64,000 nt of DNA from a virus: positions 7,647 to 71,646 of IMG/VR virus record IMGVR_UViG_3300024264_000024. The stretch is one strand, 5' to 3'. The notes under the pieces are model-generated. The model did no database searches. It saw only the letters and a list, made by a program, of their open reading frames with translations, and was not told the origin of the DNA. Of this stretch, positions 1 through 62,439 are shown in pieces (position 1 is the first letter of the stretch; every line of letters starts with the position of its first letter). A program made the translations under genes and the position numbers.

Positions 1-863
1 AAGCATTAGCTACTTTAGTCATTAATAAAATTAGAGGTGGTCTTAAGATAGCAGCTGTTAAAGCTCCTGGTTTTGGAGAAAGAAGAAAAGGGATGCTAGA
101 AGACTTAGCTGTATTAACAGGAGGGACTGTTATTTCTGAAGAGAATGGTGTAAAGCTTGAAGAAGCCACACTGGATTTATTAGGTACTGCAGAAACAATA
201 ACTATTGATAAAGACAATACTACAATTGTAAATGGTTTAGGTGATGCTGATTCTATTAAAGAAAGGGTTATGAACCTTCAGTTTCAAATTGATACATGTG
301 AAAATGAAAGTGATAAAGAAGTTTTACAACAACGTTTAGCTAAACTATCCGGTGGTGTTGCTGTACTTTATGTTGGTGCTGTATCAGAAATAGAAATGAG
401 AGAGAAAAAGGACCGTGTTGATGATGCTTTAGCAGCAACAAGAGCTGCAGTTGAAGAAGGTGTTGTTCCTGGTGGTGGTATTGCTTTAATAAGAGCAGGT
501 AAGATATTACATTCTTTTGAGTCTGATGTTCTTGATGAGGTAACCGGTGTTGATATTGTAAGAAGAGCCATCCGTGCACCATTTAAAACTATTTGTGATA
601 ATGCTGGTGTAAGTTCTGATGTCAAATTAGAGAGAATTATGAATGAACCAATTGGTACAGGTTATAATGCTAAGACAGATGAATTTGTAGATATGTTGGA
701 AGCAGGTATAGTTGATCCTAAAAAAGTAACAAGGGTAGCTCTAGAAAATGCTGCGTCAGTAGCTGGTATGATACTTACAACAGAATGTGCACTAGTTATT
801 GATGAAGATCCAATGGGTCCAACAATGGGAGGTATGCCAAGTATGCCAGGTATGCCATTTTAA
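1..863 (+). CDS. groEL: Chaperonin GroEL, C-terminal part (5' end outside window)
   Basis: Frame is open from the window start ([29 protein letters not shown]). Canonical motifs [42 protein letters not shown] and [27 protein letters not shown], plus a Gly/Met-rich tail. Confidence 0.97.
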
Positions 864-3016: not shown

Positions 3017-3116
3017 AACCTTTTAGTTTTTGTTTTAACCATTCATAATCAGGATGAGATTTAGTAGCTAATAGTCTAAAAGAGATCTCATCTGCTAATT
3101 TATCTGCCTTATCCAT
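2994..3116 (-). CDS. 40-aa microprotein (not in ORF track)
   Basis: MDKADKLADEISFRLLATKSHPDYEWLKQKLKGYVKRKNK; TAATG overlap with the stop of 3116..6337. Confidence 0.55.
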   Translation of the reverse strand: MDKADKLADEISFRLLATKSHPDYEWLKQKLKGYVKRKNK

Positions 3117-13555: not shown

Positions 13556-13565
13556 AACCAAAGAC

Positions 13566-44635: not shown

Positions 44636-47600
44636 TTAAGAATTGGGAATTATATAAGTCATAACATAATTAGAAGGTGTCATTCCTTGTTCTCTTGCTT
44701 TACTTAAATACTTTCTGTTTAACTTATCATATATGTTTTCTCCTTTAGAATCCATTTTAGTTCCTTCATATCTACCATCCATATAGTTTTTATAAATTAG
44801 TTTTTCTTCTATTTCTCCTCCTGCTTTCATTATATCTAATTGTTCTATATCTAAGTATTTAGAATTTTGTTCTACCCTTTTAGCATAATTACTTCTATTA
44901 TTCCATTTAGAAGGTAAGTACTTCATTGGATTCTTTTTTTGAGAAGGTGTTAATTGTTCATTATATCTAATACCTAATACTACAGCTGTAGCTATTGCAG
45001 ACTTTTCAGGATCTAACATATCTGAATTGTTTGTAATATTAAACTTCTTTAAAGCAGCTTTCTCAGTATCATTTAAAAATGAAAATCTTATTTGTGTATA
45101 TCCTACACTATTAGAATCACTATCAGCACCATATGTAGAATATTTAGATTGTACATCAGGACTTGATGATTGTTTTGGATTAAAATATTTATTAACAGCT
45201 CTACTAAAATTACCTGTTGCAGAATGAGTATCTCCATAATTTGATTCAGTACCGTATATTCCAAAAGCAATTTTTGCTATTTGATTATATATATCACTAG
45301 GTATTTGAGAAGTTTGCATAATCTTTTTCTTATTATCCATTAATGCATTTATAAATGGAATAGTTGTTTTATACAATTCATCTTCATCATTAAAATCAAG
45401 TGCAGTAAATATATCTTCTTTAAATTTTTCTACATCAAACTGTGCACGTATAGGTTTATAGTTTAATGTATTAATAGTATAGTTACCTCCTTGACCTTTA
45501 TATGTTTGACCATTTCTTTCATAGCTTTGGTAACTTTCTCTATTTTCTCTATTCATTCTTAATACAGCCTGACCATCAACCATTTCAAAAGCATTACCCT
45601 CATCATCAGGTAAAATATACACGTTTGTATTATTTGGTAAACCCATATCATATAAACCTTGCAGATCACTACATTTACCGTTTATACAACCATTAGAACT
45701 TCTGTTATCTGTTATATCATTATTATCAAAATACTTTTGTCTATAAGAAGGTGCTCCGTGAATTGCTGTACTAACTTCTATACCTGCTTCATTTATTAAA
45801 TTAAAACTTGGAGCATTCATATATTTTTTACTACTTGTTGGACTAGAATTACTAATTTTAAATTTACCTGCTCCTGTAGATAAATTACCTTTGCTCCAAT
45901 CTACTTGATATATACCATTTATCTTATCCTCCTCAGTAATTTTACCATCTCTATTTTTATCAATGGGTTGCGTAACAGTTTGTTGATCTCCTTCATTCTT
46001 TCCTGTCAACACTTCAAAATCAGTAATAACCTCATCACCATGGTAAAGTTTTAACCTTCCATTCTTTTTATCTATAACAACATATCTTTCATTAGGACTA
46101 TTTAATAATTGAGATTTAACAATTACTTGTTCATCAGCTAATGAATTAATGTCTTCATTGTTTTTCTTTAATACATCTGTACTTATCCATGATTCTTCAG
46201 CTAAAGGTACTTCTTCTCTGTAGTCTTCAGGTAATAAAATATCTTGATTAACACGTATCATGTTTGGATCAGATATGTTATTTATTTTAGCTAGCTTTTG
46301 ATATGACGTATTATGTCTTGAAGCAATCTTTCCTAACGTATCTCCTGGCTTAACTGTATAGCTAGAACGTGTATTGCCAAGTGATACACCTTGTGGCATT
46401 AATAACTCTTGATCAATACTAATCATACTTGGATTAGGTATATCATTTATACTTACTATTTCATCTACAGAAGTATTATAGTTTCTTGCTATTCTACTTA
46501 AGTTATCTCCTTTTTTTACTTTATAAATATTTTCACCACCATCTTGATAAAACTCATTAGTAATTTTCAAATAGTCTTTAGGAGTTTTATTTGGTTGCTT
46601 AACATTTTCTCCAAACAATTTTGGAAAGACCTCACCTAATGGCATACCATCTCTTATAACGTTTCCAAAGTATTTTCTAGTACCACCTCTACCTAAATAA
46701 TTAGATAATGCTGCTACATCTTCATATGAAAAATTCCAGTCATCACCTAGCTGATCTTTGTATTCAGCAGTTAATTCAAATGCATCTCTTAATAATGGAG
46801 TTGTTTCATTAGACTCTATTCCTTCATTTAAACGCATTCTAAAAAATCTGTCTTGTGCTTCTAAATCTTCTGAAAATTCTTCTCTTGTTCCTTTATATAA
46901 TTCTTCAATTTCAGAAAATCTTTGACCATAGTTTCCTGTTGCTGTAGAATATGGGTTCATCATTAATGTACCATCAGCACTTTCAACTCTTCTAAGACCT
47001 TTCATTAATCCTTCCACATTAATATTTAAATCTTTCCAAGAAGTAGGAGTAGAACCTTTATCAGTTCCAGGACCTTTTTGTTGTTGACTTAATCCATACC
47101 CCCCTATTGTTAATGGTACTGCTGCTCTATAAATATTTTTGTCCATTAAATTAAAATTACCATCGTTACCAAATAATGATTTAGCATATTTACCTTTTTT
47201 GTTATTATGAATAAGAACATCTCCTACACCAAAATCATATACATTTTTTATTGTAGCTCTATCTCCTCCTACTTGTTCAAGTAATGATGCCACATCATCT
47301 GTTGCAAATGTTTCTTTATATAAAGCATTAGGGTCATACATAACTGAGTTGCCTCCAGTTGGTCTAGCTCTTTTTGATGCTGCTTGTAATTCAGGAGACA
47401 TCATATCCCAAACATAAGGCTCATTAAGATTTGTCCAATCTCTACGTCCTGCATCAAATTGAATATGCTTAGCATCATCTACATTAGGTATAGCCAACTT
47501 GTATATACCACCTTCATCACCAAATTTAAGAGCACTTTTTTTATTACCACCAGCAGCTATAATATCATCTAATGTTTTTTGAGTAGATGTAAAATATGGA

Positions 47601-49648
47601 AAAGAACCACTCTTAAGAGCAAAATTACCATATTCACTTGCTAAGTCTAAATTTCCAGTAAACAAACCAGAACCTACCTTTGGTCTAACAACATCATTAT
47701 TGTATATACTAGAAAATTCTCCTCTCATACCGTCAGGTATATGTTGATCAGCTCCTCTATAAGTTACATCCATGCCATCAGGATATGCCTTTTTAAAGTT
47801 CTTACTATTTGTTTGAACAAACTGTTCTGCTGTACCTAAGCTTCCATCTGGTAATGTAAATGCAGATCCATCAGCGTTCTTCATCCATGATCCATCTGCT
47901 TTAGCAAGTTTCTCAATTTCTGTATATTCATCTACTAAACCTTTATTACTTGGAATGTCTTTATTCCATTTACCCCAATTTATTTCTGACTTAAAATTAT
48001 CAACATTCTTTAGTATATCATCTGTGCTTTTTGCTCCTTTAGAAGTTATGGTTTTTATTACTTTAGGTATTACCTTTTTACCTCCCTTTGCTAACATATT
48101 TTTAAGTACACCAACGCCTAAATAAGAAGTAGGATCTGTAAGCAAATCAACTCCAAGCCCTCCCCAAAAATTATCTATACCTAAAGTTTGTGATACTGTT
48201 TTTTGTTTTGCATCATCATCTAGTATAGTGGTATTATATAGATCAGGGAGAATATTACCCCAATTAAATTCACCATCTCCTTGGTCACTTAACCCTTCAA
48301 TACTTTCTCTAACTAAATTAGCAGGTATACCTAAAACTTGTAGTGCATTATCAGCAACAAGTAAAGGATTAAAAGTATTATTCAAAGTATTTAAAAACCA
48401 ATTCTTTTTCTTTTTACCAATAACCTCTACTTCAGGTAAATTTACAGTTTGGATATTGTCATCTTCTGTTGTTTCTCCTGCCTCTTGCATAACACGTCCA
48501 CCCATTCTTTTCATCTTCTCTAAGTTAGAGATAATGGTTTTATCTAGAGGGATTATTTGATATGCATCTCTTATGTCTGCACCTTTGTAGTCTTGTGTTA
48601 TAATAGCATCAAATCCATCATCAATAAGTTTCTGTACATCTTCTACTGAATAAGTTCTTGGTTGTTGTTCTATAAATGGGTTTTTAGGATTTATTTTTGC
48701 TCCCCATTTTTCTGCACCATAGTCATTAAATGCATAATTGTTTGGTGTAAAGAAACTTAAGTTTTGAGGAGCTTTCCAATTTGCATATTCTCTTGGATTT
48801 ACAAAATCAAGAGGCTCCATTATAGTTTCCGGATTGCTTGTATTTCTATAAAATATGTAATCTTCTGCAGGAGGTCTATTTAGTTGTTTAGGTGTATCAG
48901 AAAAAAATGACATTGCATTTGGAGTTTCTTCAACAACTTCTTCAACAACTTCATCTCCTTGTTTAGAGAATAGGTTTTTTATATAACTAGCTGCATCATC
49001 CATATATGGTGCTGCTTTTTTTGCTATGTTTTTAATTATACCTCTTTGTGCTTTAGGTAATGAACCTCCGTATTCAGCTTTTGGTTTCCAAGAACCTTCA
49101 CCAAACTTTATTGCACTTTCTCTATCAGTACCAAAGTCTATAACCTCACCTCTTCTTTTAGCTTCTTCATATACAGGCTTCCAATTTTTCTTTGCTTGTT
49201 CAGACATGTCAAGCCATGTGCCATCTTCATTTTGAAATAATGTAGGAAAAGAAAACCAGTTTTTTTTATCAAAAGTTTCCGTCTTCATTATGTGACTTGA
49301 CTCACCAATTACATTACCTTGTTCATCATAGTTTAGTCTAACACCATCTCTTTTTGGAAGTGGGCTATCTGATAGACCATATTGAGCCATAGGTATTTCC
49401 ATTACCATATCACCTGGAAATTGGTATTCATTCTCAGGGAACATCATTTGTGAATTGCCTAAGTTATCTGCACCCAATATAGGAAAGTCAACATTCTTCA
49501 TGCTTATATCCCCTGACGGAATCAGATTAACCGGATTGGTTTTATCTGGGCTATCATTTCTATATCCATCTACAGATATATATTGTGTTATATCTTGTAG
49601 GAATTCATTTGGTCCTCCTGGTAGTCCTATGCTTTTTTTATGTCCCAT
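44636..49648 (-). CDS. Polyvalent virion protein: ART-like x2, lysozyme-like, LysM x2, L,D-transpeptidase-like, lysozyme-like
   Basis: Two clear LysM repeats (YKVKKGDNLSRIA..., YTVKPGDTLGKIA...); YkuD motif AIHG...SNGCIN; RVES...STATGNYG and TESNYG...SVGYTQ lysozyme-like motifs; YR...FF/LF ART-like segments. Confidence 0.75.
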   Translation of the reverse strand: MGHKKSIGLPGGPNEFLQDITQYISVDGYRNDSPDKTNPVNLIPSGDISMKNVDFPILGADNLGNSQMMFPENEYQFPGDMVMEIPMAQYGLSDSPLPKRDGVRLNYDEQGNVIGESSHIMKTETFDKKNWFSFPTLFQNEDGTWLDMSEQAKKNWKPVYEEAKRRGEVIDFGTDRESAIKFGEGSWKPKAEYGGSLPKAQRGIIKNIAKKAAPYMDDAASYIKNLFSKQGDEVVEEVVEETPNAMSFFSDTPKQLNRPPAEDYIFYRNTSNPETIMEPLDFVNPREYANWKAPQNLSFFTPNNYAFNDYGAEKWGAKINPKNPFIEQQPRTYSVEDVQKLIDDGFDAIITQDYKGADIRDAYQIIPLDKTIISNLEKMKRMGGRVMQEAGETTEDDNIQTVNLPEVEVIGKKKKNWFLNTLNNTFNPLLVADNALQVLGIPANLVRESIEGLSDQGDGEFNWGNILPDLYNTTILDDDAKQKTVSQTLGIDNFWGGLGVDLLTDPTSYLGVGVLKNMLAKGGKKVIPKVIKTITSKGAKSTDDILKNVDNFKSEINWGKWNKDIPSNKGLVDEYTEIEKLAKADGSWMKNADGSAFTLPDGSLGTAEQFVQTNSKNFKKAYPDGMDVTYRGADQHIPDGMRGEFSSIYNNDVVRPKVGSGLFTGNLDLASEYGNFALKSGSFPYFTSTQKTLDDIIAAGGNKKSALKFGDEGGIYKLAIPNVDDAKHIQFDAGRRDWTNLNEPYVWDMMSPELQAASKRARPTGGNSVMYDPNALYKETFATDDVASLLEQVGGDRATIKNVYDFGVGDVLIHNNKKGKYAKSLFGNDGNFNLMDKNIYRAAVPLTIGGYGLSQQQKGPGTDKGSTPTSWKDLNINVEGLMKGLRRVESADGTLMMNPYSTATGNYGQRFSEIEELYKGTREEFSEDLEAQDRFFRMRLNEGIESNETTPLLRDAFELTAEYKDQLGDDWNFSYEDVAALSNYLGRGGTRKYFGNVIRDGMPLGEVFPKLFGENVKQPNKTPKDYLKITNEFYQDGGENIYKVKKGDNLSRIARNYNTSVDEIVSINDIPNPSMISIDQELLMPQGVSLGNTRSSYTVKPGDTLGKIASRHNTSYQKLAKINNISDPNMIRVNQDILLPEDYREEVPLAEESWISTDVLKKNNEDINSLADEQVIVKSQLLNSPNERYVVIDKKNGRLKLYHGDEVITDFEVLTGKNEGDQQTVTQPIDKNRDGKITEEDKINGIYQVDWSKGNLSTGAGKFKISNSSPTSSKKYMNAPSFNLINEAGIEVSTAIHGAPSYRQKYFDNNDITDNRSSNGCINGKCSDLQGLYDMGLPNNTNVYILPDDEGNAFEMVDGQAVLRMNRENRESYQSYERNGQTYKGQGGNYTINTLNYKPIRAQFDVEKFKEDIFTALDFNDEDELYKTTIPFINALMDNKKKIMQTSQIPSDIYNQIAKIAFGIYGTESNYGDTHSATGNFSRAVNKYFNPKQSSSPDVQSKYSTYGADSDSNSVGYTQIRFSFLNDTEKAALKKFNITNNSDMLDPEKSAIATAVVLGIRYNEQLTPSQKKNPMKYLPSKWNNRSNYAKRVEQNSKYLDIEQLDIMKAGGEIEEKLIYKNYMDGRYEGTKMDSKGENIYDKLNRKYLSKAREQGMTPSNYVMTYIIPNS

Positions 49649-52600
49649 TATCTTTGTGATAGTAAAAGTTTAGTATTATTTAATCTCAATAACATCTTTC
49701 TATTTCCAGACACATTTTTTCTAAGTATAACATTATTTGAGTAATGTCTAAACTTTTTACGCTGTGTTGCTGATTTAGCATAGTTAATATTAGTTGAATT
49801 TAAAGGTCTGATGTATCCATTACAATCTGTATTAAATATAGACTGTTGAGTTATTACTCCTGATGGATCAGGGAACTCACCTCTATTATTTGTTACATCC
49901 CAAAATTGATTAAATCTAAATTTATGTTCTACTTTAGAAGATAATATATCTATGTTGTTAGCATTTATAATTGGATAATTTAAATTACCCCATGGATCAT
50001 TTGTAGCTTGTTGATTAATAACTAGCAATCCAGAAGTCTGATCATTATTATATACTATAGCTGCATCAAAATTAAAATTTAAATCTTCCCATTTATCACC
50101 ACCACACATATTGTATTGAGGATCTCCTTTGTATACATATGATTCTAATTGATATTCAAAACTTCTAATTGTATTTACCGCTTGCCCTGTATTAGATATT
50201 AAATCTATTTCCCATGGATAGTCAACATTATAAAAATTAGCAAATGAATCACACCTAACATTATGTCTCCAAAAACCACCAACTTCATAATTAGGTATAG
50301 TACTTATGTAAAAGAAATAATTACATTGTCTATCACTTACAAAATTTGGATCTCCTACTTGATATATTAAAGGAGCACTATCTGGACATGTACCTAATTC
50401 TGTAGTTACTGTACCTGGTATTGTAGCGGGTGGACATTCACAAGTTACCTTTCTACATATAGGAGGAGTAACATCATCACATACACCTGAGTCAGCTGTA
50501 TATGTATTGGTTGCTGGGTCTAAATAAACTTTAGTATATCCTGTAGGACACTCACACACAAATGGTGTTGAACATACATCTCCTGCAATTTGATTAGCTG
50601 ATGCATTTAATTCACCAACAACATCAGTATTCATTGCATATTGATTTGGACCTGGTATAGAATTAGGAACATCATATGTTGTATTAGAAATACTATCTAA
50701 TAATATTGGATCATCAGGTACTGCATTACTGTTACCACAGAATACTGCATAAATTTCTTGCTTAGTTGCATCTTGTAAATCTATATCTGCTGATTGATTT
50801 GCTCCTGCCGCCCAAGCTCCAGTATTAGTTGCTTGAGGAGGATTATTTGGAACATTAGGAGATTGCATAGCAGCTATACCTGTAGCTTCAGTACCATCAG
50901 TTCCATCCGTAACAACAATTAAAATTTGTTTGAAAGAAGGATCTTGAGTTCTAGCTGGATATTGAGCAGCATAAGAAGAGTTTGCTTTATCATTTAATTG
51001 ACCTAATCCTCCAGTACCACTAAATGGATTTGCTGCATTAATAGCTGCTTCAGCACTAGTTGAATTAGTAGTATTCCAATTAGCACTATATAAAGCAATT
51101 AGTCCTGCACCAGTAGCATTACTACTCATACTTAAAGAACCTTGATTTAAATGCATACTTTGGGTACCCCAACCAGTAATACCAACTTGCATTGTTCCTG
51201 CAGCTAATGAATCTCTAACATTTGGATTAGCCATAAATACATCTAACCAACGCATCTGTGCTGTAGCAGCTGAATTATTACCCATATTACCACCACCAGT
51301 TTGATTACCAGCAGAATCAAAAGTCATGGGTGTATAATTAATATTACCAGTACTTCCTGACCAATCTATAGCAATCACAATATCTAGTAAACAGTTTGTT
51401 GCACCACCTGTTACTGTTGCTGCTAATTCATCAATATTTATTTCTGCACCAATAGTTTCATTTACACTTTGCTCACATAAATTTGTAACTGGATTAAAAT
51501 TATATCCAGGAGGACACTGAGGTACTGTTGTTGTTGCACTGCTTGTTGTAAAGAAATGATTAATGCTTGGTAAGGCTAATTGAGGATGCCAGTCATGAAA
51601 TGAAATCCACGCTTTTAATTTAGGATCATATGATATAGTCCATGAGCAATCATCAAAGTATATTGGATCTCCAATGTCAACGTTAAGACTTCCATAAACT
51701 CCTGAAGATATAGTTACAGGTTTTGTTAATCCATCTGTAAATACTGCACCGTCTATATATGCTGGTTTTAATTGGTAATCTTTTTTCATAAAGTAGACTA
51801 TATCATCTACTGAATCATACATTACTTGACAACCAACACCGTTTACTGGGTTATCTACCCACACAGAATTTTCTGAATTAGGAAATTGTTTTATAAATTT
51901 AGAAGGTAAATATTTAGCAAACCACCATTTCATTCCAGCATTAGATATAGGATCTAAAGCTTTACCACCGTAATGAAATATTTTTCCTTGTGCTTGAGAC
52001 ATAAAGAATAATCCCATTGGTGTATTTATAACACCTCTCAAACTTTCCATTGATCCGTACTCAGTAGATATATCAGCGTTAGCAATATTTTGTAAAGGTT
52101 GATTAAATAATTTACCATCTCCTATTGTAACGTTAGTACCTGAACCTAATTTTAAAGCATCAACACCTTGAAATAGTTGAGGAGACATATAAGGGAAAAA
52201 TATTATTGCACCTGATTTGCTTATAGGTTTAATTACACTAACAGCATTTTTAAAGTCTTTATAATTAAAATTTAAAAACACTCTCCAATAATCTCTTCTT
52301 GCTTCATTTTGAGCTTGCAATGAATAAATCAATCTCTTAGGATAATTAATAAAACATTGCTCACTAACTAATGGATCATAATCTCTAAGCTGTAGTGCAC
52401 CAAATGTACTTAATTGTGTTACAAACTTTGATGGGCTTAATGATTCATCATACTTATAAAAGTTACCTGACTTCTCAATCTTAGCATGAAAGAGTTCATC
52501 TATATCATTGTTATTATATACATCATATATTTTTTTAGCAGGATGTTCTTCCCAATCTCTTTGATCTAAATTAACTTCTGATTCAACATAGAAATCTAAT

Positions 52601-55600
52601 ATACCATTAGTATGAGTGTACATATATGCAAACTCCATTGCTAACATTGGATTAGGATCACTACTTCCTTTCATTATTCTATTCCATGCAGTATTCCCAC
52701 ATGATTGATTACCTCTATCTAAATAAAATAAATCTCCTGGCATAGCTTCACTTAATTGGCCTGGTTGAAATACTCCAAGACCAATTATCTCATCTGCCAA
52801 TGGTGTTATATCATATCTTTGTGAGTTTAACCAAAACCTTGGGTAAGGTAGATTTACATATAGTGAATAATCAAATGTAAACTCATTAGGTTGACCAATA
52901 AGAAAGTTAGAGAATACAGGCATAATTACTTTCTCAGTAAATCTACCAACAAAAGTATCCCCTGCAAAAATTGGTCTGCTTGAATATATTGTTGCTTCAG
53001 GTGCATCAAGATCTAACAGCTCAAGACAACCTCTCATAGGAACTTGTTTTATACCATCTAGTTGACCATATTGATTATCAAAATTATATTTCAATGCTCC
53101 ATAGTGAGCTGATATAGCTGCTTTTTTACTTTCTTTAGGATCTAATAAATAATTGTTACTCCATTTAATTCCAGTACCAGCACTATTAACATATCCACCT
53201 ACACAAAATCTAGACTTATCTTCTACATCTGGATTATCAATATCATCTTTTAATGCAACTGCTACTGTTTCAGGTCTAAATAAATTGTTTATTTTATAAT
53301 TACCATCATCAAACATTTGAAAAGATGATCCTAAATAATTTGAAGCAGTATTTTTAATTCTCCATAATCCTGAATTTACTGGTGCAAAATTTGTAAACAA
53401 ACCATATGAATTATATTTCCATGCAAAATCAGATTCTTTAATTAAATTATAAAATAATTCAATCATCTCATTTCCTCCTAAAGCAATGTTTGCTCTAGAA
53501 ACTGTTGCTGATATTATTGTTCTTAATAGTAATGGCATTGAAGACAACGGTGTTGTTGTTTCTTGTGATGATTCTTCATAACCACCCTGGATACCAGGTA
53601 TATCTCCTTGATTTTGACCAGCTATGCTTTTTATTGTTTGTTGAGCATAAAAAAGAGCACCACCAGTATATAAATCAGCAACACCTGCTACTGTTTCAAA
53701 TATTGCTTCCAGGACCTCATTTATCACTGTTGAAGCTCCATTACTTGCTGCAGTAGCTGTAAGATATGCTGCCATAGCAAGACCTGGTTGATTACCAACA
53801 CCAGCAAATCCTCCAAATGTTCCTGATTGAGAAGATAGGTTTCCTCTTGGTCCTACCACTTTCTGTTTTTGTGAACCTCTAATTTGCTGCATTGCATACC
53901 CTACACCAAGAACTGCACTGATAATTGCAGCACCTCCTCTTAGTAATTTAAACTTAGGGTGTTCTTCTGAAGGTATAAAGTATCCACTAGAATTTCCTGA
54001 AACTTGTCCATACAATCTAGTTTCATATGCATTTAAAAATGGTTTAGTAAACATTAACTCCGGTGAAGATAATGTAAATACTTTTTTAGAATATCCACTT
54101 AGCGGTGGGTAATCACGTATTGATTCTGACCAACTATCACAACCCTTAGTTATATTAGTACCACTAGTACCTGAACCAGTATGAAAATATGGATCTGGTC
54201 TTAAATCATTATAAGGATGATTAGGATATAATCCTTGTACACTTCCTCCTATAAGGTTTTCTGCATTAGGTAAATCATACTCACGCATATTTCTAAATAA
54301 CCCTTTAGCAAGGATAGATCTAGCACCTTGTCTTGAACCTCTAAGCAATTCATATCCTACTACATTTGTAATGTATGTACCATCATTATATTTTGGTCTT
54401 TTTATATTTGCAAACTCAACACCTAAAACATTAATTAAATCAGCATTTGTACTAGATAAATGTAAATATGGTCCTAATTCTTCTGTTGGCATTTTATGGT
54501 GTCTAATGAACTCACCACATAAATCATATTGTGTATCATTAGTTCCTCCAATATTTACTCCTGTTTCTGGATCAACATAAGTTGAATTCCATATGTCTGG
54601 TTTTCTTGTTGGGTATCTTTCTGATGATTGCCAGTATCCCATTTCACCACGGGCTATAACTATCCCTGCACCATCAACAGGTTCTGCTAACCCTGACGCT
54701 GTAGTAGATGCTGTATTATATACTTTAAATAATAAATCTCCATCAGGATCTAAAACATTATTTCCATATACTTTCTCATTCTCCATTGTTCCATTGTACA
54801 TTTCTGCAGCTCTTCCAGGTATATGGTATGAAGAAGATCTTTCACCTGTATTATATATCCATCTAATAAAAAATGCATATTGTTCATCACGCATCAAACC
54901 AGTCTTATTACCACCTTTGTAGTAATATTCACTTTGTACTTGATTAACAACCCAGTTTACTTTAATTTGATTTGCTATAGGTTGATAGTTAAAATCAAAT
55001 TGTTCTGTTGGCCCTTGTCTTATTAACCAGTCATTTACAACAAACATTGACTCAGATTTTTCATAAGCTGGACTCATCTGAGGAAGTTCTGCAATAGGGA
55101 TATTTTTTAATTCAACTGCAATAAAATCTATATTGACTTCTTTTATTTCTGTACTATATATTCCTATTTGTTTTGCATCTGTTTGACCTTGGTTTCTTCT
55201 TAGTATTACTAATTCAAAATAAAAATAATCTTGATCAATATTAGAAAATGATACATCTAATGAACCATCTGTACCTAAATGACTCCATAAACTTTGTACA
55301 TTAGACATGCCTATGTAATCTGTTACTCTCTGGTCATTTTCAATATATGCTACAAAAGCCTGATATGTTCCATTTGCTAACATACCACTATCTGTAGATT
55401 TATTTAACTTGACACAAGGAGTATCTAATAATGGAGCAAGTCTTATTTGCTCACAATCTAACATCTTAGGTTCTATAACTTCAAATACTGTACAAGGTAA
55501 TCCATCAACATCTAACCCAGATACTTTAATTTTTTTATAAGGTATATTGTCTAGGTTTAATGAGCGTGAAGGATTATTGCCGTCATCCCAATAAACTTGC

Positions 55601-56016
55601 CATGAACAATCAAAATTTTCTTTTGCTGCTCCAGTTATTAAAAACTTCTTGCTAAAATTTAAACATGTATCATTTACTAATGTAGTATACTTACATTCAC
55701 TATCATCAAATAAACCTATTTCAGAATTTATGTTATCAGTAGAATAAACAATCCACTCATCACCGTATCTATGTATAGCTCCTATAACTGTATAGGGTAT
55801 TACTCCACATAATAAATTTGATGGCTCATTTCCAATAATACCTAAGTCACCATCTTCAGAATTATTTGCAACATTTCTAGCATGCCACCATGCTTGGTTA
55901 TTCTCCATAGATGGAGTAATATCCTTATTCATCCCTTTTACAAATGTATTTGTATTTACAGATGAGCTAGTTTGACTGCTTGGTGCACTCTTTGGTGTAG
56001 ACTTTTTCTTTGCCAT
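49648..56016 (-). CDS. Tail stabilisation/muzzle-like protein with inserted vWA and EGF-like modules
   Basis: crAss-like signatures FVKGMNKD...WHARN, GLMRDEQYAFFIRW, SWTISYD...WISFHDW and FWRHN...ANFY; MIDAS DWSGS lies in the insert. Confidence 0.75.
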   Translation of the reverse strand: MAKKKSTPKSAPSSQTSSSVNTNTFVKGMNKDITPSMENNQAWWHARNVANNSEDGDLGIIGNEPSNLLCGVIPYTVIGAIHRYGDEWIVYSTDNINSEIGLFDDSECKYTTLVNDTCLNFSKKFLITGAAKENFDCSWQVYWDDGNNPSRSLNLDNIPYKKIKVSGLDVDGLPCTVFEVIEPKMLDCEQIRLAPLLDTPCVKLNKSTDSGMLANGTYQAFVAYIENDQRVTDYIGMSNVQSLWSHLGTDGSLDVSFSNIDQDYFYFELVILRRNQGQTDAKQIGIYSTEIKEVNIDFIAVELKNIPIAELPQMSPAYEKSESMFVVNDWLIRQGPTEQFDFNYQPIANQIKVNWVVNQVQSEYYYKGGNKTGLMRDEQYAFFIRWIYNTGERSSSYHIPGRAAEMYNGTMENEKVYGNNVLDPDGDLLFKVYNTASTTASGLAEPVDGAGIVIARGEMGYWQSSERYPTRKPDIWNSTYVDPETGVNIGGTNDTQYDLCGEFIRHHKMPTEELGPYLHLSSTNADLINVLGVEFANIKRPKYNDGTYITNVVGYELLRGSRQGARSILAKGLFRNMREYDLPNAENLIGGSVQGLYPNHPYNDLRPDPYFHTGSGTSGTNITKGCDSWSESIRDYPPLSGYSKKVFTLSSPELMFTKPFLNAYETRLYGQVSGNSSGYFIPSEEHPKFKLLRGGAAIISAVLGVGYAMQQIRGSQKQKVVGPRGNLSSQSGTFGGFAGVGNQPGLAMAAYLTATAASNGASTVINEVLEAIFETVAGVADLYTGGALFYAQQTIKSIAGQNQGDIPGIQGGYEESSQETTTPLSSMPLLLRTIISATVSRANIALGGNEMIELFYNLIKESDFAWKYNSYGLFTNFAPVNSGLWRIKNTASNYLGSSFQMFDDGNYKINNLFRPETVAVALKDDIDNPDVEDKSRFCVGGYVNSAGTGIKWSNNYLLDPKESKKAAISAHYGALKYNFDNQYGQLDGIKQVPMRGCLELLDLDAPEATIYSSRPIFAGDTFVGRFTEKVIMPVFSNFLIGQPNEFTFDYSLYVNLPYPRFWLNSQRYDITPLADEIIGLGVFQPGQLSEAMPGDLFYLDRGNQSCGNTAWNRIMKGSSDPNPMLAMEFAYMYTHTNGILDFYVESEVNLDQRDWEEHPAKKIYDVYNNNDIDELFHAKIEKSGNFYKYDESLSPSKFVTQLSTFGALQLRDYDPLVSEQCFINYPKRLIYSLQAQNEARRDYWRVFLNFNYKDFKNAVSVIKPISKSGAIIFFPYMSPQLFQGVDALKLGSGTNVTIGDGKLFNQPLQNIANADISTEYGSMESLRGVINTPMGLFFMSQAQGKIFHYGGKALDPISNAGMKWWFAKYLPSKFIKQFPNSENSVWVDNPVNGVGCQVMYDSVDDIVYFMKKDYQLKPAYIDGAVFTDGLTKPVTISSGVYGSLNVDIGDPIYFDDCSWTISYDPKLKAWISFHDWHPQLALPSINHFFTTSSATTTVPQCPPGYNFNPVTNLCEQSVNETIGAEINIDELAATVTGGATNCLLDIVIAIDWSGSTGNINYTPMTFDSAGNQTGGGNMGNNSAATAQMRWLDVFMANPNVRDSLAAGTMQVGITGWGTQSMHLNQGSLSMSSNATGAGLIALYSANWNTTNSTSAEAAINAANPFSGTGGLGQLNDKANSSYAAQYPARTQDPSFKQILIVVTDGTDGTEATGIAAMQSPNVPNNPPQATNTGAWAAGANQSADIDLQDATKQEIYAVFCGNSNAVPDDPILLDSISNTTYDVPNSIPGPNQYAMNTDVVGELNASANQIAGDVCSTPFVCECPTGYTKVYLDPATNTYTADSGVCDDVTPPICRKVTCECPPATIPGTVTTELGTCPDSAPLIYQVGDPNFVSDRQCNYFFYISTIPNYEVGGFWRHNVRCDSFANFYNVDYPWEIDLISNTGQAVNTIRSFEYQLESYVYKGDPQYNMCGGDKWEDLNFNFDAAIVYNNDQTSGLLVINQQATNDPWGNLNYPIINANNIDILSSKVEHKFRFNQFWDVTNNRGEFPDPSGVITQQSIFNTDCNGYIRPLNSTNINYAKSATQRKKFRHYSNNVILRKNVSGNRKMLLRLNNTKLLLSQR

Positions 56017-56030
56017 AATATATTAACTCT

Positions 56031-56978
56031 TTAACAAGTTGGACATTCAGTTGTTGCACTTGTTGATGTTCTTGGTCCTGCAACTACTTGAGGGTTTACT
56101 GGTGCATAACTTAAAAACATGTTATAATAATTATGATATTGTGCTCTTCTATTCATTGTCCAAAGCTTTTTCATTTCTTGGAAATTAGGAGTATTAACAA
56201 AACCTAAAGCATTATTTCTTGCTGCTCTTAATCTTCCTTCTACTAATGATAATTGTTGAGAAACATTTTCACCAGCCCATACCATATTTTCTAATATTCT
56301 TTGTTTTATAGCATACTCATAATATTCATTACAATATGGTTGATCTAAAACTAATAAATCACCTTGATCATTTTCCATGGCTCCTTGAAAACTTAAATAT
56401 ACTTTACCTGTTTTAAATGTAGTAACCAAAAAACCATCTCTTATTTCTGCAATATCTATTCCTTGAGCACCTAAACTTGGACAAAAACAAACAGGACTAT
56501 TTACATCTTTTATTTGTAAAGGTGTCCAGTCAGTATATGTTCTAAATTGTGATGGTCCAATTTTTTGAACTAACTGATGACTATTTGTTTTATCACATGT
56601 TTTTACAATACATACATCTTTACATGCTTCACCGTCTTCACAAGGAGCTGTTTCATTTGGTGCTGGTACATAGGGTACATCATTAAATGTTTCAACATGT
56701 GTACCAGATGGCATTGTGTTATTAATTTTATATGATCCACATCTAAATGCATAGTTTAAATATTTAAAGTCCATAGGTAACTGCCCTCTACCATGTTCAA
56801 TATCTATTACTACTTCTTTAGTTCTATGTATTCTTAAACCAAGATCATAATTTACTCTTGTTGCAACCTTAATCAATTGCTGAGGTTCAATCATGCCTTC
56901 TAAAGCATAATTAGCAAAGTCTATGGAAACATCTTCCATTAATTGACTAAAGGTTCTATATTGTGTTGATACTCCCAT
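56031..56978 (-). CDS. Tail ring/tubular-like protein
   Basis: Position before the muzzle gene; FKTGKVYLSF...LLVLDQPYCNEYYEYAIK pattern. Confidence 0.6.
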   Translation of the reverse strand: MGVSTQYRTFSQLMEDVSIDFANYALEGMIEPQQLIKVATRVNYDLGLRIHRTKEVVIDIEHGRGQLPMDFKYLNYAFRCGSYKINNTMPSGTHVETFNDVPYVPAPNETAPCEDGEACKDVCIVKTCDKTNSHQLVQKIGPSQFRTYTDWTPLQIKDVNSPVCFCPSLGAQGIDIAEIRDGFLVTTFKTGKVYLSFQGAMENDQGDLLVLDQPYCNEYYEYAIKQRILENMVWAGENVSQQLSLVEGRLRAARNNALGFVNTPNFQEMKKLWTMNRRAQYHNYYNMFLSYAPVNPQVVAGPRTSTSATTECPTC

Positions 56979-56989
56979 AATTGTTTATT

Positions 56990-57664
56990 TTAATTTCTCA
57001 TTGCATTACGTTTGTTGTCAGAATCTTCTGAAGGAACTTGTAATGTATTCATCATAGTTTGAACTACTTGAGATTCTATTTCAGCAAACAATGCTTCAGG
57101 TATGTAAATGTCTTGTTCATACCGTGGAGTACAATCATTAGTTTTATCACAATCCCATGCTGTAATATCTGAGTCAAATACACCTTCTACTTTTATAGCA
57201 TCCCATGCTATATTAGGACAATATATATATCCATCTAACCACCAAAAATATAATGTATTATTATATTTAAAAGAAGTTGTTTTAGTCATTGAAGTATATG
57301 TACCTGGTTGGGTTGCTTGTAATTCTTGTGAACCATCTATTGAACTAATAGTACGGATTAATGGACCCCAGTATCCTTCAAACATAGATGGTAATTTTAA
57401 TTTTGTACGTTTTATTGTACATCCACTTTGTATTCCTGAACAATGTGCTTCAACTTTATCTACATCTATTAATTCTACATAAGGCAATGTTTTCCATACA
57501 GAATTAAATTTTAATAATTTATTTGCATAATCTTGCCTTCTCATTAAAAATTGAGCATGCTTTTCTATTAAACTATAAATATATCTGTCTGTTACAAAAC
57601 CATCTTGCACTTCTGCTTTGACTTGACCTCTTATTCTAGATATTACTTGTGCTATTGTTGACAT
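56990..57664 (-). CDS. Tail ring-like structural protein
   Basis: MSTIAQVISRIR...TDRYIYS...YFWWLDGYIY pattern and synteny. Confidence 0.55.
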   Translation of the reverse strand: MSTIAQVISRIRGQVKAEVQDGFVTDRYIYSLIEKHAQFLMRRQDYANKLLKFNSVWKTLPYVELIDVDKVEAHCSGIQSGCTIKRTKLKLPSMFEGYWGPLIRTISSIDGSQELQATQPGTYTSMTKTTSFKYNNTLYFWWLDGYIYCPNIAWDAIKVEGVFDSDITAWDCDKTNDCTPRYEQDIYIPEALFAEIESQVVQTMMNTLQVPSEDSDNKRNAMRN

Positions 57665-60210: not shown

Positions 60211-62439
60211 TTATGAACAACCAGCTATAATTTCACCACTAATTGTTGTTGCGTCAGCTGAAACATTCCAATTTCCTCCAGTTTGTGTTGCCAGTTCTCT
60301 CCAAGGATATAAAGGTGTTACACTTCCTCCTGTGTAGCTTGTTCCAGGTCCACATACAAAATACTTAATTCCATTTAAGTTTGCATAAGTAATCATTGAT
60401 TGTATACCTGCCCATACAGTATTGTTAAATGAATCTCCTGTACCTCCTGGTAATTTATCTGTTATAATAATAACATACTTAGCAATACCCGCTCTAAATG
60501 ATCCAGTTAAGTTACTAGTTGTAACAAGCTGTGCAGCATAATCAGTTGGTTCAGGTGTTCCTGCTCCATTTCCTAAATTTATACAAGTACCATCTACACC
60601 TCCATTTAATTTATCTAATTCAGCTGTAAAAGATACTCCATTATTATTTTGGAACATTTCCCATGCTGTAATATATTGTGTTACATTATTAGTTCCAATA
60701 TTTACTATTTTTTGAGAAGTTGGTAAACCTGTATATGTAGCACATGCACTATAACTAGGTGCAGAACCACCACCTGTATAATATTCATCAGCTGTAACTA
60801 GTGATAATCTATAATCATTTGCACCAGATAATGTTGATATAGTAGAAACTAAATTTGATACACCAGATTTAACAGAATCAATTATAGGACCCATAGATCC
60901 TGTATAGTCTATAACAAATGATACATCCATTCCTGCACTACATGGTGCTGACCCTGTTAAAGTGGTAATAGGTGTTAATGCACAAACTTCTGTAGCTCCT
61001 TGATATTGTGTTGTTATTCTAACATTATATGTTGTATCAGGAATTAAACCTGTAAATTGTATTGATGGATTTGGAGCTGGATTAGTAATTGTTTGCGTTG
61101 CTATAACTGTTGTTCCTCCTGCATCTAATACATCTACTACATATACTGCAGTAGTTCCTAAGTTTTGAGTAAAGCCTACTGTAAATCCATCTTGTACCAC
61201 TGCTGAAATTGATATGTTACCTGGACAAGGTAAAAATCCTGTCACTACTGAAGCCAATCTTGTTTCACATGTATCTGATCCATCTGTTACAGAATAATCA
61301 ATAGTAACAGATAAATCTTGAGCTGTTACTAATGCACCAGTCTGAAAGTCAAAACCTGCAGGTACATTTTGTAAACTAGAAACACTTACTATTTGTGATA
61401 ATGATAATCCGTTTACATCCGTTAATGTTATTAAACTACTACCTGTACTATCATTAAATGTAGCAGGTATACTTGATCCTGTGAAATTAAAATTAATTGC
61501 ATCAATTAGTCCAGTTGATACATCATATTGACTTGCTTGTGTTGATGCAAATACAACAGAATCACATCCTCCTGGACAACAATTTGTTTGTATAGATTGA
61601 ATAGCAGAATACATATCATCTATAACAATCCAAGCGTTTTGCACAGATTGTGCTAAAGTTGGTGCTGGATTTTGCCATCCACCTATTGAACCATAAGATA
61701 CTGCTGAGTCAGATAATGTAACGCTTGAACCAGTTATAGATGATTGACCTATAGCATTATTAATTAATGCTGCTGTTCCTACTGCATCTCTTAAAGTACA
61801 AAAAGCACTTTCAAGTGCTAATACTACTACTGATACATTTGTTAATACTCCTACTGTACTTACACAAGTTGGAACAATTTGAATTTCTGCAACTGTTCCT
61901 GAGCAAGGTAATACACATGCTTCTAAAATATCTATTCTTGAATTAAAACTTGTAAGAGTAGAGTTAATTACATTTATACTAGCTAAATTAGTACACACCT
62001 GTTGAGCTATTAAAGTAGCAAACTCATCTAAACGTAGTTCTGTAACAGGGTTACCATTTCTATCATTGTACTGCAAGCATGCAGGCAATGTCATTATTGG
62101 TAGACTATCTTCTACCTGTTTTTTAGAAGGACCAGATCCACCTCCATCTGTGTTATCACAGATCTGATTTACCATTGCTTGTAATACAGGAACTAACTCT
62201 GTAGGAGTTACACCTGGTATATTTAAACAACTTAAATCCAATCCTGTTAAATTTGGATTTGCTGCAACACCATCCGTAATAAGATCACATACCTTTGTGG
62301 CTAATTTTGCTGTTACTTCACTAATTGTATCACCATTGCATATATCTATACATGCAATGTCTGGTCCCTGCCATATAACGCAATTAGATGATATATTGTC
62401 ACAACCATTAGTTGTGCCACCTGAGTTTGTTGGAATCAT
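60211..62439 (-). CDS. Cys-rich structural protein with Fn3 and C-terminal vWA domains
   Basis: FTGLIPDTTYNVRI (Fn3); DVSFVIDYTGSM...KYVIIITD (vWA MIDAS). Confidence 0.75.
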   Translation of the reverse strand: MIPTNSGGTTNGCDNISSNCVIWQGPDIACIDICNGDTISEVTAKLATKVCDLITDGVAANPNLTGLDLSCLNIPGVTPTELVPVLQAMVNQICDNTDGGGSGPSKKQVEDSLPIMTLPACLQYNDRNGNPVTELRLDEFATLIAQQVCTNLASINVINSTLTSFNSRIDILEACVLPCSGTVAEIQIVPTCVSTVGVLTNVSVVVLALESAFCTLRDAVGTAALINNAIGQSSITGSSVTLSDSAVSYGSIGGWQNPAPTLAQSVQNAWIVIDDMYSAIQSIQTNCCPGGCDSVVFASTQASQYDVSTGLIDAINFNFTGSSIPATFNDSTGSSLITLTDVNGLSLSQIVSVSSLQNVPAGFDFQTGALVTAQDLSVTIDYSVTDGSDTCETRLASVVTGFLPCPGNISISAVVQDGFTVGFTQNLGTTAVYVVDVLDAGGTTVIATQTITNPAPNPSIQFTGLIPDTTYNVRITTQYQGATEVCALTPITTLTGSAPCSAGMDVSFVIDYTGSMGPIIDSVKSGVSNLVSTISTLSGANDYRLSLVTADEYYTGGGSAPSYSACATYTGLPTSQKIVNIGTNNVTQYITAWEMFQNNNGVSFTAELDKLNGGVDGTCINLGNGAGTPEPTDYAAQLVTTSNLTGSFRAGIAKYVIIITDKLPGGTGDSFNNTVWAGIQSMITYANLNGIKYFVCGPGTSYTGGSVTPLYPWRELATQTGGNWNVSADATTISGEIIAGCS

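Follow-up and report, generated by a model that had tools for sequence, protein, structure and literature searches.

The muzzle protein of an uncultured marine crAss-like podophage, which forms the terminal hexameric assembly of the tail, carries a two-level nested insertion in which a Cys-rich beta stalk (residues 1492-1541 and 1816-1912) bears a vWA domain (residues 1542-1815), and on balance we regard this cassette as a probable accessory, exchangeable, metal-dependent host-adhesion module. The gene lies in a window of 64,000 nucleotides (the whole stretch of viral DNA analysed), and its product is referred to below as P0001. The cassette bears on how crass-type phages recognise their hosts and on the role of the muzzle at the cell surface.

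The muzzle gene and its insert

Pfam family PF25731 (crAss_MUZ) matched P0001 with 84.5 bits (E 7e-24, cut-off 27 bits), with the best stretch at residues 21-241 and with profile positions 1109-1219 (of 1224) matching residues 1316-1489; this family also turned up in the IMG/VR record to which the window belongs, and P0001 also matched PHROG families for virion structural proteins. The gene order, CrAss_Ring_2, CrAss_Ring_1, muzzle and, next, a protein of 1670 aa that has LysM and YkuD domains, is as expected for a crassvirus muzzle (rings, muzzle, large cargo genes), and the order in crAss001 is alike, with gp40 and gp43 (the R2 and R1 rings of PMC10172136) ahead of gp44 and gp45. Two further products of this phage might also bind a receptor, a Big_9/cadherin-like protein of 1073 aa and a protein of 742 aa with fn3 and vWA-like parts.

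All ten motifs quoted in the initial annotation were found in the single open frame of P0001 (Table 1). Before or at the start of the insert these are WISFHDW (1470-1476), HFFTT (1487-1491) and CPPGYNFNPVTNLCE (1501-1515); in the vWA part LDIVIAIDWSGS (1544-1555), QILIVVTDG (1697-1705) and IYAVFCG (1755-1761); in the C-terminal stalk CECPTGY (1821-1827) and CRKVTCECPP (1854-1863); and after the insert GFWRHN (1914-1919) and ANFY (1926-1929). The coordinates first assigned to the cassette, 50281-51545, correspond to residues 1491/1492-1912, the in-frame span being 50281-51543.

Table 1. Coordinates in the window of the muzzle gene, the parts of its insert and the adjacent ring protein genes
Feature	Coordinates	Strand	Remarks
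Muzzle protein gene	49648..56016	(-)	2122 aa (P0001), one open frame; crAss_MUZ PF25731 match
Pre-insert flank, residues 1306-1491	51544..52101	(-)	all-beta C-terminal propeller segment, ends WISFHDW...INHFFTT
Stalk, N-terminal half, residues 1492-1541	51394..51543	(-)	disulfide-type hairpin C1501-x12-C1514 and long beta strands
vWA domain, residues 1542-1815	50572..51393	(-)	conserved C1542 and C1815 at its two ends
MIDAS motif D1551-W-S1553-G-S1555 (DxSxS)	51352..51366	(-)	aligns to DGSNS of integrin alpha-1 I domain
MIDAS threonine T1653	51058..51060	(-)	family 'gggT' aligns to GRQT of integrin alpha-1
MIDAS aspartate D1704 (in ILIVVTDG)	50905..50907	(-)	aligns to VTDG of integrin alpha-1
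Stalk, C-terminal Cys-rich half, residues 1816-1912	50281..50571	(-)	8 conserved Cys: 1821, 1823, 1846, 1854, 1859, 1861, 1877, 1898
Post-insert flank, residues 1913-2122 (GFWRHN... to C-terminus)	49651..50280	(-)	aligns to C-termini of Lbo-JY46, csAssE-Sib, Fpv1
Tail ring protein 1 homologue	56031..56978	(-)	315 aa; CrAss_Ring_1 E 1.6e-7, 31.5 bits vs cut-off 27; directly upstream of muzzle gene
Tail ring protein 2 homologue	56990..57664	(-)	224 aa; CrAss_Ring_2 E 8.5e-19, 68.5 bits vs cut-off 27

The insertion of about 420 aa (residues 1492-1912) is real, and the statement in the initial annotation that its flanking segments normally lie close together was borne out by BLASTP, which placed the two flanks next to each other in distant homologues without the insert. 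In Leptolyngbya phage Lbo-JY46, query residues 108-1490 aligned to subject residues 134-1453 and query residues 1902-2112 to subject residues 1443-1644, and the insert therefore has no counterpart there. In csAssE-Sib (query 831-1490 to subject 1391-2056, query 1911-2111 to subject 2065-2246), 8 residues replace the insert. Cellulophaga phi17:2 has only 193 residues after the pre-insert anchor, and a closer relative at IMG/VR locus L078 (1706 aa, 53% identity) has a linker of 12-14 residues at the site. Flavobacterium Fpv1 is a less clear case, about 208 residues separating its two aligned pieces. Alignment with crAss-like muzzle homologues thus confirmed the boundaries and showed the site to be variable; the insert does not belong to a core shared by all homologues, and its fold is indeed vWA. 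Because it is in frame, recurs in hundreds of related genes and has a fold predicted with high confidence, it is no chance feature.

The vWA domain and its Cys-rich stalk

An AlphaFold2 model of the insert reached a pLDDT of 92.6 and a pTM of 0.75, and on structural alignment its core (residues about 1537-1820) folds as vWA, as the initial annotation had supposed. The Foldseek search with this model returned 158 PDB matches at E<=1e-3, with the vWA fold in all matches listed, and VIA-align superposed the model on CMG2 (7n1o) with Z 17.2 and an rmsd of 2.5 Å over 174 residues (insert-model range 46-329), and on the integrin αM I domain (1mf7) with Z 16.9 and an rmsd of 2.8 Å over 184/194 aa. 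The family profile matched the integrin alpha-1 I domain (E 1.2e-4). Pfam VWA (PF00092) scored below its cut-off on the P0001 insert (13.5 bits, E 0.088, vs 23.8) and reached 41.9 bits at the homologous position of a relative (P0152); since the single-sequence score is sub-threshold, vWA membership rests on fold, motif and profile together.

The MIDAS is complete: D1551, S1553, S1555, T1653 and D1704 each align to the corresponding MIDAS residue of the integrin alpha-1 I domain. The complete set is kept in 131 of the 136 family domain instances in which all five MIDAS columns are filled, and column by column the counts among non-gap instances are 143/144 for D1551, 144/144 for both S1553 and S1555, 138/144 for T1653 and 145/145 for D1704; the bracketing C1542 and C1815 are invariant among non-gap domain instances. 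Across 26 homologues, the vWA had the lowest mean identity to the query of the seven protein regions compared (0.35, vs 0.66 and 0.68 in the flanks), and within it the lowest identity and the most gaps fell in windows 1551-1600 (0.35, gaps 0.20) and 1701-1750 (0.26, gaps 0.24), directly after the DxSxS and TDG motifs. The loops after these two motifs form the ligand face in vWA domains, and a conserved metal site in variable surroundings is the pattern that, at the level of sequence, a specificity-determining binding surface would be expected to leave.

The structural neighbours lie on both sides of the divide between eukaryotes and bacteria. Integrin alpha I domains and the CMG2/ANTXR2 vWA have the same fold as the insert (Z 16-17, rmsd 2.4-3.0 Å, 168-186 residues) at 12-16% identity, and the phage domain differs from them in about 100 extra loop residues (284 vs about 185), in its Cys-bracketed termini, in its Cys-rich stalk and in having a viral tail protein as carrier. 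Matches were likewise obtained to vWA domains of bacterial surface adhesins, namely the S. oralis pilus protein PitA (7W6B), the L. rhamnosus pilus adhesin SpaC (6M48) and the P. gingivalis type V pilus tip protein Mfa5 (6TNJ/6TO1), with the S. sanguinis minor pilin PilB (7B7P) and the vWFA of the P. fluorescens LapA adhesin (9NO5) as further neighbours; at Foldseek E values of 5e-7 to 1e-4 and Z 13.6-15.9, the bacterial adhesins equal the eukaryotic vWA domains. The suggested resemblance to eukaryotic adhesion proteins is accordingly nothing special, integrins scoring no better than bacterial pilus-tip adhesins and LapA. Those bacterial proteins are cellular pilus or RTX-type adhesins; in P0001 the domain is nested within a phage tail protein, and no kinship with them was detected at the sequence level. 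A eukaryotic origin was considered and is unsupported: a search of 1.84 billion representatives gave 42 proteins matching the insert at E<=1e-3. HMMs built here identified 40 of these as pieces of muzzle cassettes; the other two, one with LRRs and one with peritrophin-A repeats, were hit through short Cys motifs alone, so that no cellular homologue of the insert was found by sequence in that collection at that threshold. Recent duplication of the window's other vWA-like protein (60211-62439) was also rejected, the best BLASTP E value being 0.44.

The stalk and its immediate surroundings contain twelve conserved cysteines, which are presumably disulfide-bonded. In the family alignment (A2), C1501 and C1514 are invariant (27/27 sequences) and the eight Cys of the C-terminal half are invariant or at least 90% conserved. 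AlphaFold2 placed strands at insert positions 3-47 of the N-terminal half (block pLDDT 77-96) and beta strands at insert positions 326-421 of the C-terminal half (block pLDDT 79-97). The label "EGF-like" given to the stalk holds at the level of a motif only. CxCPxGY resembles part of the EGF signature, the next Cys lies 18 residues beyond it, the six Cys of an EGF domain are not found, and no EGF family matched the insert at E<=1 in Pfam; in relatives, cEGF (PF12662) gave sub-threshold matches of 10 residues (P0125 23.6 bits vs 26.6, P0146 21.5, P0127 18.0). CBM14 (PF01607, peritrophin-A) matched the N-terminal hairpin over profile positions 26-49 only (13.3 bits, E 0.093, vs a cut-off of 22.1), and since the full domain has 53 positions and six Cys and the hairpin has two Cys, the likeness is to the C-terminal half of that domain; the best relative (P0127) scored 21.3 bits, below the same cut-off. 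No Pfam family exceeded its cut-off on the C-terminal stalk of P0001, an ESM Atlas search with residues 1811-1912 gave nothing informative (best score 0.76), and in the whole-insert structure searches with Foldseek and VIA-align the match lists were filled by vWA.

Variation at the insertion site

This clade of uncultured phages, many of marine metagenomic origin, is large: IMG/VR holds 480 relatives and the protein collection has 1283 proteins. We sampled 80 IMG/VR loci via N-terminal patterns, independently of the insert; 8 were cut before the site, leaving 72 evaluable. A stalk with one vWA occupied the site in 60/72, and a double or longer vWA in 2/72. Five (5/72) held a non-vWA module of about 270 aa that is PA14-like, three had the stalk only, one the first hairpin only, and one was empty. 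The PA14 signal of the alternative module is weak (Pfam PA14 E 3.4e-4 in P0146, below cut-off; ESM Atlas lead 0.85), and in P0131, P0141 and P0146 this module showed no Pfam family over cut-off and no PDB sequence match.

In a tree from which the insert columns were left out (MAFFT FFT-NS-2 and FastTree), the stalk-only, hairpin-only and empty forms fell within clades that bear the vWA, at SH-like supports of 98-100, long branches being liable to misplacement. As forms without the vWA are nested among vWA-bearing ones, the vWA is dispensable for an intact muzzle gene; the relatives are metagenomic contigs, so that the forms without it are only presumably viable. The same spot holds one module, a different one or none, which suggests a role in attachment. 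One defined muzzle loop therefore offers a natural experiment, with vWA, double vWA, PA14-like module, bare stalk and empty site; should the module bind the host, crassvirus muzzles would have their first assigned adhesin, the type of cassette could help to predict the hosts of uncultured phages, and the stalk would be a ready-made display socket.

That the cassette is a degenerate passenger without present function would fit its absence or replacement in 10/72 evaluable relatives and the sub-threshold Pfam VWA score of P0001. We disfavour this reading as extremely improbable, given a MIDAS kept in 131/136 instances, invariant bracketing Cys, a pLDDT of 92.6 and retention of the module even where identity within the insert falls to about 30%. 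The same dispensability in some relatives, together with the PA14 (carbohydrate-binding) signal of the alternative cargo and the likeness of the N-terminal hairpin to chitin-binding CBM14, is also consistent with adherence of low specificity, in which the cassette would bind polysaccharide, capsule, mucus-like or particle material and raise encounter rates, as proposed for Ig-like decoration domains. We consider this unlikely, since the PA14 and CBM14 signals are both under their curated cut-offs and a strict MIDAS with variable loops suggests a defined acidic ligand; the present data do not separate such adherence from specific receptor binding.

Position in the muzzle and candidate roles

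A C-terminal span of 814 residues superposed on residues 1065-1371 of crAss001 gp44 (7QOK chain A) with Z 13.1, rmsd 4.4 and 254 aligned residues at 17% identity, the alignment reaching model residue 820 and gp44 residue 1371. Since the flanks superpose on this part of gp44, the site lies in the C-terminal propeller segment and not in the distal crass domain, and the term "tail tip" used in the initial annotation was imprecise; in the crAss001 structure paper (PMC10172136), the IG and crass domains lie below this segment. A model of the insert in its context (residues 1300-2122, 823 residues) had a pTM of 0.45 and a pLDDT of 40-70 after the insert, values too low to orient the cassette on the virion. 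Hhalign of alignment A2 against gp44 aligned the N-terminus only (query 23-396, probability 82.8), so the insertion was mapped on gp44 by Pfam profile coordinates and by the end residues of one structural alignment; the Pfam coordinates put the corresponding point between about residue 1235 and residue 1244 of gp44. Gp44 (1371 aa), which has its protein family and its gene position after Ring_2 and Ring_1 in common with P0001, has no module at this point, whereas P0001 has about 420 aa there. PF25729 (muzzle C-terminal domain) matches gp44 residues 1244-1333 at 97.3 bits; it gave no match in P0001, where no Pfam family was found on residues 1914-2122 even at E<=10, and a phmmer search of PDB sequences with P0001 returned nothing at E<=0.01. 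Bayfield et al. 2023 (PMC10172136) attribute muzzle length variation to insertions in the crass and IG2 domains; the P0001 insertion differs from these in lying in the C-terminal propeller segment. The same authors propose, and go no further than proposing, contact of the muzzle with the cell surface, and they suggest that its surface properties are changed by insertions.

For the host-adhesion module that we favour, homology with crAss001 gp44 would give six copies per virion, and we infer that the cassettes project from the outside of the muzzle, that the MIDAS is occupied by Mg2+ or Ca2+, divalent cations that are plentiful in seawater, and that an acidic group on a host surface molecule completes the coordination of this cation; the vWA may then capture or orient the phage on the cell ahead of ejection. 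A conserved MIDAS with variable adjoining loops, a polymorphic site and bacterial adhesins among the structural neighbours all argue for such a role, as does the proposal of Bayfield et al. Against it stand the sub-threshold Pfam VWA score of P0001, the other candidate receptor binders that the phage encodes (Big_9/cadherin-like; fn3 and vWA-like) and the metagenomic source of the forms without vWA. The propeller, moreover, is the proximal part of the muzzle in crAss001, so that the cassette may not reach the cell surface directly. Retention of the module in 60/72 relatives also fits a conserved structural role.

Within complexes, too, vWA/MIDAS domains commonly make protein-protein contacts, and the partner of the cassette might therefore belong to the virion itself. 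On this structural or assembly role the MIDAS would bind a tail fibre, a hub protein, a ring or a neighbouring muzzle subunit and would stabilise or dock appendages, and a new tail architecture would be revealed. Structural neighbours that include TFIIH, Ku and the proteasome subunit Rpn10 agree with it, as do the second vWA-like protein in the structural module, the 60/72 relatives that keep the cassette, and a site in the propeller, which is near the tail barrel in crAss001 (PMC10172136). We nevertheless hold this role to be fairly unlikely, because intact muzzle genes without the vWA, or with an unrelated module at the site, are nested among the vWA-bearing forms, and because a vWA with the lowest identity of seven regions, at its minimum just after the MIDAS motifs, would be unusual for a fixed internal interface.

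In integrin alpha subunits, the I domain is inserted in a seven-bladed propeller, and the phage vWA likewise sits in a loop of a beta-propeller-containing protein. The insert flanks match the propeller-containing C-terminus of gp44, and the crAss001 gate is a loop in propeller blade 4 whose opening needs domain rearrangements (PMC10172136). Integrin headpieces aligned over 284-294 residues, though at an rmsd of 36-42 Å, which makes this no rigid match. An integrin-style trigger would join these points, with ligand binding at the MIDAS relayed via the stalk to the propeller, where the blade-4 loop gates the channel, and ejection started. This seems to us very improbable: a piston-like relay would probably be damped by the Cys at both vWA ends (C1542 and C1815) and by the length of the stalk, the vWA is missing from some relatives and so cannot be the sole trigger, and no structural sign of two conformations emerged. 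A broader, decidedly unlikely proposal is an integrin-like sensor in which six propeller-inserted vWAs bind a host ligand and signal through a disulfide-rich stalk to the gate, such that the muzzle and not the fibres would license ejection of cargo and DNA, and in which these abundant marine phages would be retargeted by whatever is plugged into the site, be it a vWA, a PA14-like module, a third module of 530-585 aa or nothing.

The host-adhesion module would have parallels in phage tails and phage-tail-like particles. Modular receptor-binding domains of phage tails and eCIS fibres are likewise binding modules exchanged on a conserved scaffold, and VWA is listed among the domains of eCIS tail fibres (PMC12923769); compared with tail fibres and spikes, the scaffold here is a muzzle (nozzle-type) protein, and the cargo stands on a Cys-rich stalk in a propeller loop. 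A literature search on vWA in phage tails or muzzles, with subscription journals and supplements outside its reach, found only this eCIS tail-fibre listing and CobT-type proteins, with no crassvirus muzzle vWA among the matches listed. In BFVD, vWA folds occur in other phage proteins too, for instance in a VWFA protein from Rhodobacter phage RcTitan (E 3e-5) and in one from Pseudomonas phage PaMx28 named 'virion structural protein' (E 1.9e-3).

Insertion in the muzzle protein and its location

The muzzle gene product (P0001) matched the Pfam family crAss_MUZ (PF25731; 84.5 bits, E = 7e-24, cut-off 27) and two PHROG families of virion structural proteins. The neighbouring genes (table) follow the order in crAss001, where gp40 and gp43, which are rings R2 and R1 (PMC10172136; Bayfield et al. 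2023), likewise precede the muzzle gene gp44, and gp45 and other large cargo genes follow it. The source IMG/VR record is linear (71,646 bases; CheckV completeness estimate 63%), and its closest named phages by tblastn, each below 30% identity, were csAssE-Sib, Leptolyngbya phage Lbo-JY46, Cellulophaga phages phi17:2 and phi4:1, and Flavobacterium Fpv phages.

Window coordinates of the muzzle gene and other features
Feature	Coordinates	Strand	Details
Muzzle gene (P0001)	49648-56016	(-)	single open frame, 2122 aa
Gly/Ala-rich, partly hydrophobic stretch (P0001 residues 701-850)	about 53467-53913	(-)	
CrAss_Ring_1 match	56031-56978	(-)	Pfam; immediately upstream of muzzle gene
CrAss_Ring_2 match	56990-57664	(-)	Pfam; upstream of muzzle gene
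LysM/YkuD protein	44636-49648	(-)	1670 aa; two LysM (E 1.2e-29), YkuD L,D-transpeptidase domain (E 1.8e-7); immediately downstream of muzzle gene
742-aa protein	60211-62439	(-)	structural module; fn3 domain (E 1.6e-5)
4659-aa single open frame	21746-35725	(-)	
1073-aa protein	3116-6337	(-)	Big_9 (E 1.5e-13) and cadherin-like (E 2.3e-8) domains
Ribonucleotide reductase, small subunit	12575-13555	(+)	E 1.5e-56
Ribonucleotide reductase, large subunit	13539-15191	(+)	E 6.9e-98
Cpn60/GroEL-type chaperonin	3-863	(+)	E 2e-30; interrupted by window start

The initial annotation had described P0001 residues 1492-1912 as an extra cassette between segments that normally lie close together, and all motifs it quoted were found where it placed them. 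We compared P0001 by BLASTP with four distant muzzle homologues (Lbo-JY46, csAssE-Sib, phi17:2 and Fpv1), the spacing at the site being readable in the first three: the two flanks were adjacent in Lbo-JY46 (subject coordinates 134-1453 and 1443-1644), 8 residues separated them in csAssE-Sib, and just 193 residues followed the pre-insert anchor in phi17:2. Because the flanks are near-adjacent in these homologues, and because the C-terminal 307 of the 1371 residues of gp44 align structurally to an 814-residue span of P0001, the insertion is real, as had been claimed.

P0001 residues 1316-1489 correspond to positions 1109-1219 of the 1224 in the crAss_MUZ profile, which in gp44 stops at residue 1235, with a separate family, crAss_MUZ_C, spanning 1244-1333; the insertion point therefore falls near gp44 residues 1235-1244. 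A model of P0001 1300-2122 (mean pLDDT 78, pTM 0.45, weak after the insert) aligned with the crAss001 muzzle chain 7qok_A, the sole non-vWA match among the 50 matches listed (Z 13.1, rmsd 4.4 Å, 254 aligned residues, 17% identity; model 7-820, chain 1065-1371). As IG2 and the crass domain occupy gp44 residues 318-1021 (PMC10172136), this alignment places the cassette in the C-terminal propeller segment, unlike the length variation that the paper locates in the crass and IG2 regions. The propeller of crAss001 has seven blades and lies above the IG and crass domains, and its blade 4 loop forms the gate (PMC10172136); an integrin-style trigger acting on this gate seems decidedly improbable as the role of the cassette. 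We infer that the cassette is external on the virion, because six 420-residue modules are too big for the channel. A function in which the vWA domain contacts another part within the virion appears unlikely.

Fold, metal site and stalk

An AlphaFold2 model of the insert, built from a 38-sequence alignment, reached a mean pLDDT of 92.6 and a pTM of 0.75, with every segment at 50 or above. Foldseek returned 158 PDB matches at E ≤ 1e-3, and all among the matches listed were vWA-fold proteins, including PitA, CMG2/ANTXR2, the LapA vWFA domain, SpaC, complement factors B and C2a, and integrins. VIA-align superposed the model on 7n1o (Z 17.2, rmsd 2.5 Å, 174 aligned) and on the integrin alpha-M I domain 1mf7 (Z 16.9, rmsd 2.8 Å, 184/194 residues), the vWA-aligned part being model residues 46-329 (P0001 about 1537-1820). 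From sequence alone, the family profile detected integrin alpha-1 I domains (E = 1.2e-4), pairing the family D-x-S-x-S, T and D with integrin DGSNS, GRQT and VTDG. These results support the proposed vWA domain. Pfam VWA scored 13.5 bits on P0001 alone, under its 23.8 cut-off, and 41.9 bits at the homologous position of a relative, P0152.

The MIDAS residues of P0001 are D1551, S1553, S1555, T1653 and D1704. Among 154 vWA instances gathered from relatives, 136 had all five MIDAS columns filled, and the pattern was intact in 131 of these, the five exceptions carrying A (four) or D (one) in the threonine column. That the cassette is a passenger domain without function is extremely improbable. Taken jointly, we regard the insertion, the vWA fold and the MIDAS as very nearly certain.

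The vWA domain is flanked by a stalk of high-confidence beta strands, about 50 residues N-terminal and about 97 C-terminal to it. Twelve cysteines in and around the insert are conserved, each invariant or at least 90%: C1501 and C1514 form a hairpin-type pair, C1542 and C1815 bracket the vWA, and the others lie at 1821, 1823, 1846, 1854, 1859, 1861, 1877 and 1898. They are probably disulfide-bonded; the crAss001 tail is stabilised by disulfides (PMC10172136). The earlier label "EGF-like" did not hold as a family assignment, with no EGF family at E ≤ 1 on the insert and, in relatives, cEGF matches only 10 residues long and under cut-off. The first hairpin resembled the C-terminal half of peritrophin-A CBM14 equally weakly (E = 0.093 in P0001; 21.3 bits against 22.1 in the relative P0127).

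Occupancy and variability of the site

Of 8000 candidates scored in a search with P0001 1400-2122, 1283 proteins reached E ≤ 1e-3; the top 120 covered the region fully at 46-92% identity, and many of these were marine (e.g., Tara). When only the insert served as query, against 1.84 billion representatives, 42 proteins matched at E ≤ 1e-3, of which 40 were pieces of the same cassette according to HMMs built in the analysis; the other two were rejected as unrelated eukaryote-type repeat proteins sharing short Cys motifs only, and no cellular donor was seen among these representatives. Both samples are biased because they were selected with the insert itself, and IMG/VR was therefore sampled through two N-terminal peptide patterns, which gave 480 relatives. 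The best 80 (44-98% identity) were used, and after setting aside eight loci that stop short of the site, 72 were evaluable (the state of L053 was taken from the longest ORF and that of L046 assigned by eye). Sixty loci carried the stalk with one vWA, two a longer or double vWA (L071, L085), five the stalk with a non-vWA module of about 270 aa (L072, L074, L077, L080, L086), three the stalk only (L036, L041, L043) and one the first hairpin only (L046), and one site was empty, with a linker of 12-14 residues (L078).

The non-vWA module, which gave only weak PA14 signals, has similar counterparts in the protein-collection fragments P0131, P0141 and P0146 (41-50% identity among the three). In P0157 (1563-2148) and P0122 (724-1253), the conserved stalk halves at the canonical site enclose a third module of 530-585 aa that matches no Pfam family; the two copies share 33% identity (E = 6e-42). 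Further vWA copies, with their own CPPGY-type Cys motifs, were observed at a second site upstream, roughly at window residues 1425-1444, in P0122 (about 258-579; 45% identity to the window vWA), P0143 (1604-1876) and P0152 (739-816). These sequences suggest relocation or duplication of the cassette between neighbouring loops.

A 75-row phylogeny was computed by FastTree on an alignment stripped of the insert columns and was rooted on Lbo-JY46 and csAssE-Sib; as a fast method, it gives SH-like supports and takes no account of recombination, and several branches are long. Each of the two major ingroup clades included vWA-bearing genes. The stalk-only loci fell in a four-row group with the vWA-bearing L047 (support 98), the hairpin-only locus within a vWA clade (99), the empty locus with three vWA-bearing loci (four rows, 100), and the five non-vWA-module loci in a single clade (100). 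At least seven state changes were needed, against a shuffled mean of 13.9. The simplest reading of these sequence relationships is that stalk and vWA would be old in the clade and were later lost or replaced several times.

Mean identity to P0001 over 26 full-length homologues was 0.66 and 0.68 in the pre- and post-insert flanks, 0.47 and 0.50 in the N- and C-terminal stalk halves, and 0.35 in the vWA, where identity was lowest and gaps most frequent in windows 1551-1600 and 1701-1750, right behind DxSxS and TDG. The loops after these motifs ring the metal site in vWA domains; with the MIDAS conserved and these loops variable, the metal site is fixed and its surroundings change. Low-specificity adherence to polysaccharide or particles is a quite unlikely reading of the cassette. 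Along P0001, the lowest identity among the fifty-residue windows compared (0.21-0.31, same homologues) lay in the Gly/Ala-rich stretch.

Proposed role and neighbouring genes

On the best-supported reading, the cassette is probably an adhesin that is accessory and exchangeable. Each muzzle would display six vWA domains on stalks, and each domain would engage an acidic group of a molecule on the host surface through a cation bound in its MIDAS; the variable loops around the MIDAS would set specificity, and the cargo of the socket could be swapped or lost with a change of host. The cassette gives the proposed part of the muzzle in host contact a tangible form that can be tested. Adhesins of the vWA type, inserted domains in tail proteins of phages, and muzzle proteins as a family are each known already; eCIS tail-fibre domains include VWA (PMC12923769), and vWA folds occur in several phage proteins in BFVD. 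Searches of the open-access literature turned up no account of a crassvirus muzzle with a vWA cassette or a polymorphic socket.

The LysM/YkuD protein lies where crAss001 encodes its cargo protein gp45; because it occupies that position, it may by analogy be ejected and bind or remodel peptidoglycan. The C-terminus of the 742-aa protein is vWA-like (Pfam VWA E = 1.3e-4, 22.6 bits against the 23.8 cut-off; DYTGS motif near residue 511); compared with the muzzle vWA, it gave no significant match (best E = 0.44). A second virion protein with a vWA domain may be encoded here. The phage may have a further receptor binder in the 1073-aa protein, a candidate fibre or adhesin. The window also encodes a chaperonin and both ribonucleotide reductase subunits, and the 4659-aa frame lies in a region corresponding to that in which crAss001 has large virion RNA polymerase genes.
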